DNA of 64,000 nucleotides from Candidatus Thorarchaeota archaeon (GTDB taxonomy: Archaea; Asgardarchaeota; Thorarchaeia; Thorarchaeales; Thorarchaeaceae). The number at the start of each line of letters is the position of its first letter. Position 1 is the stretch's first letter. Shown here piece by piece: positions 21,709 through 25,571 of this stretch. Where the stretch lies: positions 1 through 64,000 of the forward strand of contig SDNP01000009.1 of NCBI GenBank assembly GCA_004524445.1, in the 5' to 3' direction. The position numbers and the translations under genes are program-made. The notes below the pieces were generated by a model. That model did not search any database, was not told the origin of the DNA, and saw only the letters and a list, made by a program, of their open reading frames with translations.

Positions 21709-23219
21709 CCTTTGATTACTCCTAGTGGTCTCAATCTAACAGCATTTGTAGCGATGCCCACTGCGTCCGAAACCCGTACAACTTCGTCAACATCCTTGTA
21801 AGCTCCTGGGGCTTCTTCTGCAATGACAACGCCCTTCGTTGCCTTTACAATGATTCCTCGTTTCTCCAAGTCTGTCTGTACATCTCGACCGTAGAAATCT
21901 TTCTTTGCTTGAGTGCGGCTCATTACCCTTCCAGCTCCATGAGCAGTTGATCCAAAAGTAAGCTCCATACCTCTCTGATCTCCTACTAAGATGTATGAGG
22001 CAGTTCCCATGGTTCCTGGTATGATGACAGGTTGACCAATTTTCTTGTATGCGGCTGGTGTTTCAGGATGTCCTGGTGGAAATGCTCGAGTAGCCCCTTT
22101 TCTGTGCACGACAACTTTTCTTCGTTTTCCATCTATATCATGATGTTCTACTTTGCCCATATTGTGTGCTATGTCATAAATCAGATTCATATCCAGGTCC
22201 CGAGAGCTTTCACCAATGACTCGTGCAAAGGACTCCCGTGCCCAATGGAGCATGGACTGTCTATTTGCAAAGGCGTAATTTGCCGCAGCACTCATTGCCT
22301 TCAGATAATCCTGACCTTCTGGCGAAGTGATAGGCGCACTACAAAGCTGCTTGTCCGGAACCTCAATATTGTACCTCTTCATGGCCTTGTTCATTATTTT
22401 GATATAGTCGCTGCACACTTGGTGCCCAAATCCACGGGACCCACTGTGAATCATTATGGTGACTTGTCCCTCTCTTGTTATCCCCATTGCTTTAGCAGCT
22501 TCCTCGTTGTAGATTTTGTCAACTGCCTGAATCTCTAGGAAATGGTTTCCTGAGCCGAGGGTGCCAACTTGAGATAGCCCTCGTTTCTTGGCTTGATTTG
22601 AAACTTTAGTGGGGTCTGCAAGGTCAATCCTCCCATTTGCTTCCTGGTGCTCAAGATCATCCTCCCATCCATATCCATTCTCAACAGCCCATTTTGCGCC
22701 GCCTGTTAAGACCGCATCCAGTTCACGGTTGTTGTTCAATCTGATATTTCCTTTTCTTCCGATTCCTGTTGGAACTTCATCAAATAGGGTGTCAATCAGC
22801 TGTCGAAGCTTGGGTCTTACATCACTCTCATCAAGTGATGTTCTCATTACTCTTACACCGCAGTTAATATCGTAGCCGACTCCCCCAGGTGAGATAACGC
22901 CATCTTCGTAATCAACAGCAGCTACACCACCTATCGGAAAACCATACCCTTGGTGCCCATCTGGTAGAACAATACTCTTCTTGTATATTCCGGGAAGACT
23001 TGCTGTGTTCACGGCTTGAGTTAAAGTCTTGTCACCCTTAATTTTTTCCAGCAATTTGGGTGAGGCATAGATTCGAACCGGTACTCGCATCCAGGGTTTG
23101 GTGTCCTTGGGAATCTCGTAAATATAATTATCAATCTTATTAATTTGCAACAGTAGCCTCTCCGGGTTGTAATCATTGTTAACTACGTTATACGCGCTAT
23201 AAGGATTTTGAAGTGTCAC
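21705..23219 (-). CDS. rtcB: tRNA-splicing ligase RtcB
   Basis: PDGHQGYGFPIGGV, GYDINCG, GSGNHF, HSGSRG, HRKGAT, STAHGAGR, EEAPGAYK. Confidence 0.97.
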   Translation of the reverse strand: MTLQNPYSAYNVVNNDYNPERLLLQINKIDNYIYEIPKDTKPWMRVPVRIYASPKLLEKIKGDKTLTQAVNTASLPGIYKKSIVLPDGHQGYGFPIGGVAAVDYEDGVISPGGVGYDINCGVRVMRTSLDESDVRPKLRQLIDTLFDEVPTGIGRKGNIRLNNNRELDAVLTGGAKWAVENGYGWEDDLEHQEANGRIDLADPTKVSNQAKKRGLSQVGTLGSGNHFLEIQAVDKIYNEEAAKAMGITREGQVTIMIHSGSRGFGHQVCSDYIKIMNKAMKRYNIEVPDKQLCSAPITSPEGQDYLKAMSAAANYAFANRQSMLHWARESFARVIGESSRDLDMNLIYDIAHNMGKVEHHDIDGKRRKVVVHRKGATRAFPPGHPETPAAYKKIGQPVIIPGTMGTASYILVGDQRGMELTFGSTAHGAGRVMSRTQAKKDFYGRDVQTDLEKRGIIVKATKGVVIAEEAPGAYKDVDEVVRVSDAVGIATNAVRLRPLGVIKG

Positions 23220-23299
23220 CCAGTTAAAATATCGAAATTCTATTAATGGGGTTATGACCCATCATAACAGGGACTACTCCCAAAGAATAATGGAGGTTG

Positions 23300-24343
23300 A
23301 TGTATCAAGTGCCAGAGATGCGATTGACTGCAATGGTTACAACTCATGGATGAAGCTGTAAGATCAAGAAGACGGATTTGACAGCACTACTGCAGAAGGC
23401 CGGGCTTCTTCCGCTTAATGCGTCATGTAGTGACTTGCTTGGCGATGATGCCGTTGTCAAGATTGCAGCCGATGATATTGCTCTTGTTGAGAATGTGGAT
23501 GTATTTACTCCAATAATCGACGACCCCTTTACACAGGGAGAAATCGTAGCATGCAATGCTACCAACGATGTATTCGCTATGGGTGTTGAAAGGATATTGT
23601 CCCTTCAAGCTTTCTTGGCATATCCAGCAGAGATGTCTGATGATATCGCTGTGGGTGTGCTTAAGGGGATGAGCCACTTCATGAGAAACCTCGGCTCGGA
23701 TGTAACAGGTGGTCAGACAATCACCAATCCTTGTCCCGTCTTTGGTGGTATCTGCATTGGTGTAGCACATCCTGATGATGTCATATACTCTTCAGGTGCA
23801 CGACCCGGGGATGCTGTGCTTCTAACAAAACCTCTGGGCATTCAATCTGCCATGAGGTCATATCGAGACCTCAAAGATGAGAAGCGTGATGCACTATTAG
23901 AGAGGTTCACTGAACAAGAGCTTGAAACAATGCAGGATATTGCCATTCGCATAATGACTCAAAGCAATCTTGAGGTTGCGAAGGCAATGCAACACGTTGG
24001 TGCTCATGCTGCCACCGACATAACGGGATTCGGTCTTCTCGGACACGCCGAGAATGTTTCATCTCTCAGTGGAGTAGATATCGTATTCGAATCTCTTCCA
24101 GTGATCCATGGTATTCTGCCATTGGCTGAATACTTTGGTCATAAGGTATCTACCGGATTCGCTGCAGAAACTGCTGGTGGAATGCTAGTCTTTCTCGACC
24201 CCGAAAAAGTAGAGGCCTTCTCTTCTTTACTGCAGGAGTCGAGACTCCCTTGTTGGTCTGTTGGATATGTTTCTGAATCCATGAATACGCCCTCGTCAAG
24301 ACTGGCGGAGGACGTGCAGTTTATTGAGACTGAGTTCCCATGA
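23300..24343 (+). CDS. selD: Selenophosphate synthetase, selenoprotein (Sec at TGA 23351-23353)
   Basis: In-frame extension MYQVPEMRLTAMVTTHG-U-SCK above ORF 23378; GGAGG at 23292; DDA, DVFTPIIDDP, NATNDVFAMG, LTKPLG, TDITGFGLLGH. Confidence 0.93.
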
Positions 24344-24380
24344 TGTTATCAAAAACCAGAATGGAGTGATAACGGAGGAG
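24335..24380 (+). promoter_or_regulatory. Eukaryote-type SECIS element
   Basis: UUCC-C-AUGA-UGUUAUCA-AAAA-CCA(GAA)UGG-AG-UGAUAACG-GA-GGAG. Confidence 0.8.
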
Positions 24381-24397
24381 GGCCGTAGCAAACGGCC
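24381..24397. terminator. GC hairpin immediately after SECIS
   Basis: GGCCGT-AGCAA-ACGGCC. Confidence 0.4.
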
Positions 24398-24451
24398 AGT
24401 CTCATTCTTTCATAAGAAAAAAAGCAATGTTTTCTTGTCAACGACAATCTT

Positions 24452-24649
24452 TCATTCGAGCAGATGATTGAGCTTGGTGAACAGCTCGTCAATTCCCTTA
24501 AGAGGTTCCAAATCTAACTCTGGGGGAATGAATTTGCGTAGCTCAGTTACCTCTGCCTCTTCTATGTCATGGAAGAGCCAAAACTCCCTTGTTGTGACTT
24601 CTTTTGTTTGGGACACTGTTGAATATCTCCGACGAGATAGTATGCTCAT
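24452..24649 (-). CDS. Small hypothetical protein
   Basis: 65-aa ORF filling an intergenic gap; no motif recognised. Confidence 0.4.
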   Translation of the reverse strand: MSILSRRRYSTVSQTKEVTTREFWLFHDIEEAEVTELRKFIPPELDLEPLKGIDELFTKLNHLLE

Positions 24650-24869
24650 TTGGAGTTATTAATTAATCGGTAAAGTTCGTCATTCGACGAATCACTAGAG
24701 TATTTTCGTCATTAGATGATGTATGGACCGTAGCGAAATGCATTGTAAATAGGCAAACAATTTATCACTTAATTATGCAATCAGTGGCATACATACAAGA
24801 GAAGAATCTCGAGTGTCCTATTTTCGAGCATTCTTCCATGGTCGAATCTACAGGAAGAGAGATAGTCAG

Positions 24870-25571
24870 ATGAAGATAGTAGTAACAGGTCCCTATGAAT
24901 CTGGAAAGAGCTTGATGATTCATCACATTACTGATGGTGCTTGCATCAATGTAGAACGACGTGGGACAACGATTGCTATGGATCATGGTGTTGCAAACGT
25001 CGATGGAATGAGTGTTTTCTTGTTTGGGACCCCTGGCCTTCTCAGATTTAGGACAATGCGGAAGATTCTGAGCTCGGGCGCTGATGGAATCATTTTCGTA
25101 GTAGACTCGGTTAATCCTGAATCGGATGCGCGGGCAAAGCTCTTCTTTAGAGAGATCGCCTTTTTCTTGCCTGGAGTTCCTTGCGTTGTAGCAGCAAACA
25201 AACAGGATCTGGATGAAGCACGACCTGTTGATAAATTACGAGAAAGCATGAGTTTCTTGGCTGGTCTTCCTGTAATTCCTGTTTCAGCAAAGACAGGGAA
25301 AAACGTTGAGGGTATGCTGCGAACGCTTCTTTACCTATCCATGATGCAATGGAGCTCCGTCCTTGGTAAAATCGCAGAGTATAGCGGAAACACTAAAGGA
25401 CTGGACAAAATTGTGAAGGATCTGAACATCGAGAGAGACCGTGCAGTTGGCCATCTACGGCGATTTGAGCTTCGAAAATTGCTGACTTTGCAGGTTGGTG
25501 ACGAACAATTTCATGTAAATGAAAATGTGAAGGCTCTTTTGGAGAATCCTGTGCTGATAATGCGTCGCTGA
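24870..25571 (+). CDS. MglA/CvnD-like small GTPase with C-terminal wHTH
   Basis: GPYESGKS, TTIAMDHG, FGTPGL, NKQD, VSAK; start MKIVVTG. Confidence 0.85.
   Translation: MKIVVTGPYESGKSLMIHHITDGACINVERRGTTIAMDHGVANVDGMSVFLFGTPGLLRFRTMRKILSSGADGIIFVVDSVNPESDARAKLFFREIAFFLPGVPCVVAANKQDLDEARPVDKLRESMSFLAGLPVIPVSAKTGKNVEGMLRTLLYLSMMQWSSVLGKIAEYSGNTKGLDKIVKDLNIERDRAVGHLRRFELRKLLTLQVGDEQFHVNENVKALLENPVLIMRR

Follow-up and report, generated by a model that had tools for sequence, protein, structure and literature searches.

A SECIS element at the end of Thorarchaeal selD in which the UGA of the AUGA core is the stop codon of the gene

The selD gene of the Thorarchaeal genome analyzed here ends in a eukaryote-like SECIS element, and the UGA of the AUGA core of this element is the stop codon of the gene itself. 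The present analysis confirms that this element is real and was correctly read in the original prediction, which was made from the window, that is, the whole 64,000 nucleotide stretch of DNA. Most likely, the element is the Thorarchaeal selD SECIS, a kink-turn embedded in a three-way junction, that serves the UGA at codon 12, whereas the UGA of the core itself is read as stop.

The SECIS type, its overlap with the stop codon and the argument that such a stop lies too close to the element to be recoded are already published, as documented in the texts of two earlier studies (Mariotti et al., 2016; Huang et al., 2024), and accordingly the present case adds little to the record: one more Thorarchaeal genome with a SECIS type and an overlap that have been described. 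For the specialist, the use of the analysis lies in the clear phylogeny of the overlap, which is fixed in one family, in selD as well as in vhuU, but is absent in ten families that keep the same RNA, and in a clean case of dual coding that involves six codons and the stop. Furthermore, judging from sequence comparison, the three-armed architecture with its conserved pentaloop could provide a concrete target for efforts to identify the SECIS-binding factor of Asgard archaea.

The selD gene and its genome

The source genome (2.79 Mb in 64 contigs) has a completeness of 90%. SelD is identified by the match to the TIGR00476 selD profile (216.5 bits against the curated cut-off of 125), and homologues are found in 63 of the 85 genomes of the same family (Thorarchaeota), with exactly one in-frame TGA within each full-length match. 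The start of the gene is ambiguous (23292-23320): the selD homologues start to align at the ATG in position 23318, and an in-frame ATG in position 23300, 3 nt past a GGAGG (23292-96), is an alternative. On the 3' side, 108 nt of intergenic sequence separate selD from a convergent ORF at 24452, and the first 60 of these are taken by the SECIS element. The machinery of selenocysteine (Sec) incorporation is present in this genome, where EFsec/SelB (scoring above the cut-off), SepSecS and tRNA-Sec are clustered within 3.5 kb (G000 contig C49:35951-39446, outside the window).

A 451 nt contig from a salt lake metatranscriptome, 95-99% alike, covers positions 23998-24443, including the stop codon and the whole element; it differs by A24348G, which leaves the respective pair of helix II intact as G.U. 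Given that such data consist of assembled contigs, which carry no strand, have ends that are not transcript ends and might stem from DNA carry-over, this contig is a weak hint of expression of the selD 3' end; stretches that no metatranscriptome contig covers are uninformative.

Architecture of the element

The complete element is a three-way junction that extends from 24326 to 24403, with the 5' edge located 15 nt before the stop codon (Table 1). Within the closing stem P1, there are two arms, one of which consists of the kink-turn, helix II and the ministem, and the other one is the P3 hairpin. In the core, G24342 and A24343 are located opposite A24376 and G24375, respectively.

Table 1. Features of the selD gene and its 3' element (window coordinates) and the vhuU genes of the same genome
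Feature	Position	Strand	Pairing, evidence or remark
selD (selenophosphate synthetase) CDS	23318-24343	+	341 aa and stop; translation, profile match, homologues
Sec-UGA, codon 12, motif ..TTHG-U-SCK..	23351-23353	+	990 nt 5' of the stop/core UGA
P1, 5' strand GAGACU, Glu-Thr codons of the C-terminal ..IETEFP	24326-24331	+	pairs with 24398-24403
C-stem, 5' strand UCC (Phe/Pro codons)	24336-24338	+	pairs with GGA 24377-79
Kink-turn bulge C-A-U, 3 nt; U24341 is base 1 of the stop codon	24339-24341	+	conserved columns
selD UGA stop, identical to the UGA of the AUGA SECIS core (A24340)	24341-24343	+	sequence; translation
Helix II, 5' strand UGUUAUCA, 8 bp	24344-24351	+	double changes at all 8 pairs
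Unpaired AAAA atop helix II	24352-24355	+	two A columns (near-)invariant in A1
Ministem CCA 24356-58/UGG 24362-64 with GAA loop, type II apex	24356-24364	+	minimum-free-energy fold
Helix II, 3' strand UGAUAACG	24367-24374	+	covariation
Core GA, non-bulged strand	24375-24376	+	GA in 31/32 aligned sequences
C-stem, 3' strand GGA	24377-24379	+	covariation
P3 hairpin, 5-6 bp stem, pentaloop AGCAA (consensus N-G-C-R-A)	24381-24397	+	covariation, invariant loop bases
P1, 3' strand AGUCUC, 3' end of the element, followed by a U-rich tract	24398-24403	+	covariation, fold
vhuU copy 1	L116:382-534 = G000 C23:2893-3045	-	50 aa, Sec codon 23
vhuU copy 2	G000 C16:72709-72861	-	50 aa, Sec codon 23

The original prediction had listed a core that includes the stop codon, helix II, the AAAA stretch, the ministem, the GA dinucleotide and a lower helix; all these features are present, and the fold into which they were combined is the minimum-free-energy fold (z = -2.6, and -3.1 for a longer stretch). 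Three points of this description have to be amended. The lower helix UUCC 24335-38/GGAG 24377-80 is present, but only the 3 bp UCC/GGA are conserved, and although the hairpin core of the SECIS was delineated correctly, the closing stem P1 had been missed and the segment 24381-24397 had not been recognized as a conserved third arm. As for the P3 hairpin (24381-97), its interpretation as a terminator was rejected given that the covarying stem P1 encloses this arm.

The selD element matches the characteristics of the Asgard type II SECIS, namely, an AUGA...GA core, a stem within the range of 7-15 bp, unpaired adenines and a ministem within the range of 2-8 bp. The mark of the euryarchaeal SECIS, an asymmetric GAA_A bulge between two stems, the upper of which contains three G-C pairs, is absent from both the fold and the conserved structure. 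The sequence pattern of a simple kink-turn, that is, a C helix, a 3-nt bulge, tandem G.A/A.G pairs and an NC helix, is present and conserved as well, and the RNA is predicted to be kinked. A scan of positions 23000-25000 with the Rfam models, at E values up to 10, detected no SECIS family but only a chance match to an sRNA on the opposite strand; thus, in this region, Rfam yields no other SECIS that would explain the recoding, and there is no intergenic room for one.

Conservation and covariation in the Thorarchaeota

Conservation was assessed in 62 distinct selD 3' ends from the family to which the window belongs (Thorarchaeota), and covariation at 22 base pairs in 32 family members aligned with MAFFT in an unbiased manner, with 500 shuffles and slid structures as controls. 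The signal of covariation is strong. In the alignment of the 32 selD 3' ends, 91% of the cells pair, compared to just 31-46% in the slid controls, and double-sided changes occur at 15 of the 22 pairs, which is not matched by any of the 500 shuffles. Stem P1 is paired in 100% of the cases, and three of its six pairs covary despite encoding Glu-Thr, the variants being GAGACY/RGUCUC, GAAACY/RGUUUC and GAGGCC/GGCCUC; the C-stem is 99% paired. In helix II, every pair is doubly changed (8/8), with a compensatory replacement of U-A by C-G already in a relative from the same genus. The first pair of this helix is non-standard in 15 of the 32 sequences, as expected for the 3b.3n position of kink-turns, which is often occupied by a non-Watson-Crick pair. 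The P3 stem is 95.6% paired, with double changes at four of the five pairs, and the G and A of its pentaloop are invariant across the alignment, and so is the C of the bulge (24339). The original proposal of a eukaryote-type SECIS on selD, a Sec-containing gene, is supported, and the element belongs to the Asgard type II.

One Thorarchaeal selD element (L035, 1600-1689, plus strand) departs from this pattern in that UA replaces the core GA and the base of helix II contains a C.C mismatch and a bulged A; this deviation may reflect either natural tolerance or an assembly error.

The constraint that the RNA imposes on the coding sequence is apparent at the very end of the gene. In all 62 family members, the stop of selD is TGA and coincides with the UGA of the core, with a variable helix directly 3' of it, against a background of 36% TGA among the long ORFs of this genome. 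The UGA is preceded by a purine in 61 cases (A in 35, G in 26, with C in the remaining one), at a four-fold degenerate proline position where CCR accounts for merely 50% of the codons genome-wide. Likewise, the C-terminal phenylalanine codon is UUC in 61 of the 62 sequences, compared to 53% genome-wide, and the sole UUU is offset by the change of GGA to GAA on the opposite strand. In the latter locus (L078, G318 C1:103580-103810), the C-stem has changed from UCC/GGA to UUC/GAA in a compensatory manner, and the last two residues are Phe-Arg instead of Phe-Pro. In this clean case of dual coding, RNA pairing shapes the final six codons along with the stop.

Could the core UGA itself be recoded part of the time, yielding a SelD protein with a C-terminal extension? 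This is a UGA on a SECIS-bearing mRNA, and in the window, another 14 codons can be read before the frame closes. However, there is no conservation of the frame past the stop, the next in-frame stop being located anywhere from 0 to 74 codons downstream and following immediately in 7 of the 62 sequences, and furthermore, the element cannot be folded while that codon is being decoded. We therefore consider partial recoding to be extremely improbable and, in what follows, treat the core UGA as the stop codon.

Other selenocysteine genes of the genome

The overlap extends to the two vhuU genes of this genome (Table 1), both of which end in GGA-UGA. Here, too, the stop UGA belongs to the AUGA core, in a SECIS of the three-way-junction type that, in this case, is enclosed by an additional outer stem of 8-10 bp (GGAAGGAG/CUCCUUCC). 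Among the vhuU loci of the family, the stop is within the core in 30 of 30, the structure is 94.8% paired, and 11 of the 23 pairs are doubly changed. The Sec codon of vhuU is located 84 nt 5' of the stop, which implies that the element would work at a distance of 84 nt but not at a distance of zero.

A strict genome-wide pattern scan yielded 116 matches, nearly all of them due to chance (one, on contig C7 at 16476, is inside a hydrolase gene), and apart from selD, both vhuU genes and one more candidate Sec gene, no locus showed the conserved form of the element. Examination of the HdrA/FlpD genes in this genome for Sec and a SECIS showed Cys forms throughout, with no such element in any of them.

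Outside the window, a small putative selenoprotein (76 aa) with an in-frame TGA is encoded at L151:305-535 (G000 C52:53104-53334, plus strand). The predicted protein starts with a membrane helix at the N-terminus and contains the conserved motif PDNRT-U-xxYEYID; a SECIS-like AUGA...GA element with a GUAAAG loop is located approximately 30 nt past the TAG stop of the gene, and the TGA is kept in all homologues, from six genomes that represent three genera of the family.

The distribution of the conserved form bears on the possibility that the element is not a SECIS at all but rather a general kink-turn or L7Ae-binding 3' element involved in mRNA stability, 3'-end formation or translational repression. 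Such an interpretation is compatible with the fit of the core to the pattern of a simple kink-turn and of box C (RUGA), with the lack of a match to the Rfam SECIS models, and with the failure to find SBP2: a search of this genome (90% complete) for an L7Ae-domain protein of the size of SBP2 returned none, but only two ORFs of the L7Ae family (125 and 122 aa); L7Ae of this genome maps to C30:20636-20914. The alternative is hard to reconcile, however, with the specificity of the conserved form for genes with a Sec-UGA in this genome (selD, the two vhuU genes and one candidate), while the Cys-type HdrA/FlpD genes lack the element, and with the A-rich apex that is typical of SECIS elements; moreover, no other recoding signal is present. 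A function other than that of a SECIS therefore seems distinctly improbable.

selD in other Asgard families

The comparison with 40 selD loci, drawn from ten further Asgard families, reveals the same layout, namely, P1, a C-stem of 2 bp, an A/G-UGA core, helix II, AAAC, a ministem, GA and a P3 arm with a GCRA-type loop. In these families, the C-stem covaries, UU/AA alternating with UC/GA; in the largest of them, the structure is 95.9% paired, with double changes at 15 of the 21 pairs, and in the f22 family, the equivalent ministem covaries. By contrast, the overlap with the stop codon is not conserved across the Asgard archaea but is confined to the family of the window: at none of the 40 loci is the stop in the core, being instead mostly UAA or UAG, located 4-21 nt 5' of the core UGA and usually abutting P1.

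Three loci from families f17 and f18 (L037, L043 and L046) show an intermediate register: the UAA stop of selD follows P1 and precedes the UGA of the AUGA core by 4-7 nt, such that P1 is part of the coding sequence at these loci as well. In two f22 loci (L069 and L075), the core of the selD SECIS is UUGA rather than A/G-UGA.

In an alignment of the C-termini, the Thorarchaeal SelD is no longer than that of f22 and is 3 aa longer than the SelD of the families in which the protein ends in 'IEV-stop'. A scenario in which the Thorarchaeal protein was lengthened through loss of the stop and read-in to the SECIS is not supported by this alignment. To the extent that the sequences tell, it was the RNA that came to occupy the last six codons, rather than the protein that extended into the RNA.

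The P3 arm is common to the vhuU elements, selD and several Asgard families. Tentatively, the Asgard SECIS would be kink-turn three-way junctions rather than simple hairpins, and this third arm (a hairpin of 4-6 bp with an N-G-C-R-A pentaloop) could be a second functional determinant, either as a docking site for the Asgard SECIS-binding factor or as a tertiary contact that holds the kink, and would have been lost in the line to the eukaryotic SECIS; we view this as a possibility that falls short of being probable.

How the stop codon would be read, and why it might lie in the core

Under the simplest scenario, the SECIS would direct Sec insertion at codon 12, 990 nt upstream, and the UGA within its core would be read as stop. 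Because of the size of the mRNA channel, a terminating ribosome unwinds the RNA around its stop codon, and therefore a ribosome that terminates at 24341 should have unwound the element. The geometry bears out the earlier proposal that a terminating ribosome must melt the SECIS: with the stop UGA in the A site, the ribosome must already have melted P1, the C-stem and helix II, the 5' strand of the latter being the one unwound. The same reasoning has been published to explain the lack of recoding at nearby UGA stops (Mariotti et al., 2016). At termination, there would thus be no folded SECIS on that mRNA to recruit EFsec, and since there is no second SECIS on the selD mRNA, the stop UGA would be readable only by a release factor. 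After termination, the SECIS might refold, by analogy with the bacterial in-frame SECIS after each ribosome passage.

The placement of the stop in the core would then be a lineage-specific compaction, subsequently frozen by the RNA-structural constraint on each of the last six codons and on the stop itself. We infer that the overlap is a neutral compaction and was not selected for itself, although either route would result in the same fixity. The alternative is regulatory coupling, whereby the overlap is advantageous as such, with terminating ribosomes stripping and resetting the SECIS complex and so gating the output of SelD by ribosome traffic or by the supply of the binding factor. The fixation of the overlap throughout the family (62/62 selD and 30/30 vhuU) is in line with this idea, and so is the position of the vhuU Sec codon just 84 nt before the stop, a spacing at which terminating and decoding ribosomes could interfere. 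Nevertheless, the RNA constraint on every codon involved explains the fixity equally well, and in the candidate Sec gene of this genome, the stop is separated from the downstream core by approximately 30 nt. Above all, ten other Asgard families keep the SECIS architecture with the stop, mostly UAA or UAG, 4-21 nt 5' of the core, and given that these families manage without the overlap, the function does not need it. Coupling of termination to Sec insertion, as suggested in the original prediction, is not needed to explain the data, and we regard it as unlikely. Neutral compaction remains our preferred explanation; the proposed replacement of UGA by UAA would break a G.A pair of the core and therefore cannot separate the role of this codon as a stop from its role in the core.

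Comparison with known systems

The closest known relatives of the element are the SECIS of other Asgard archaea. The lokiSECIS of the selenophosphate synthetase (SPS) gene has been described as type II-like, with a shorter stem and an apical ministem (Mariotti et al., 2016, PMC4989117). The same text notes that many selenoprotein genes of Lokiarchaeota have UGA stops, with the argument that their proximity to the SECIS precludes recoding, and that in VhuU.1 the AUGA motif doubles as the stop, the overlap being named there for VhuU.1 and not for SPS (Mariotti et al., 2016, PMC4989117). The selD element shares with the lokiSECIS the AUGA...GA core, the short main stem, the unpaired adenines and the placement at the end of the coding sequence, but differs in that the text on the lokiSECIS includes neither a closing stem within the coding sequence nor a second hairpin (PMC4989117).

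Among the 'eSECIS-like' elements of Asgard archaea, type II has been reported as the main form for selD, with AUGA_GA or GUGA_GA cores in Thorarchaeial selD and with [U/A][A/G]AA adenines, and a frequent overlap of UGA stops with the AUGA motif has been noted (Huang, Xiao and Zhang, 2024, PMC11227280). The 'lower stem' G[A/U]G_C[U/A]C of that model agrees with the GAG...CUC of P1; the model, as laid out in the text of the article, comprises a core, an upper stem and an apex, and the third arm P3 and the junction do not figure in that text (PMC11227280). A search of article full texts for a SECIS in a three-way junction returned nothing relevant.

The type II SECIS of eukaryotes, which is bound by SBP2, has in common with the selD element the A/G-UGA...GA core, helix II, the unpaired adenines and the ministem, and likewise serves a UGA located some distance upstream, with a minimum spacing required. 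The differences are the shorter helix II in the present case (approximately 8 bp), the three-way junction with its extra hairpin, the overlap with the coding sequence, the lack of an Rfam match, and SBP2, which was not found in this genome.

The bacterial SECIS, a hairpin bound by SelB, lies in the path of the ribosome, is melted by every translating ribosome and must refold (reviewed in PMC13188914). The selD element also lies in the path of the ribosome; however, the bacterial SECIS is located directly 3' of the Sec codon and contains no kink-turn, whereas the selD element is 990 nt away from that codon and is melted at termination.

Finally, with simple kink-turns, box C/D RNAs and k-junctions, the element appears to share a C helix that ends in a C-G pair, the 3-nt bulge and the tandem G.A/A.G pairs, with RUGA resembling box C. 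Unlike in a simple kink-turn, the C helix here consists of only 2-3 bp and opens into a three-way junction.
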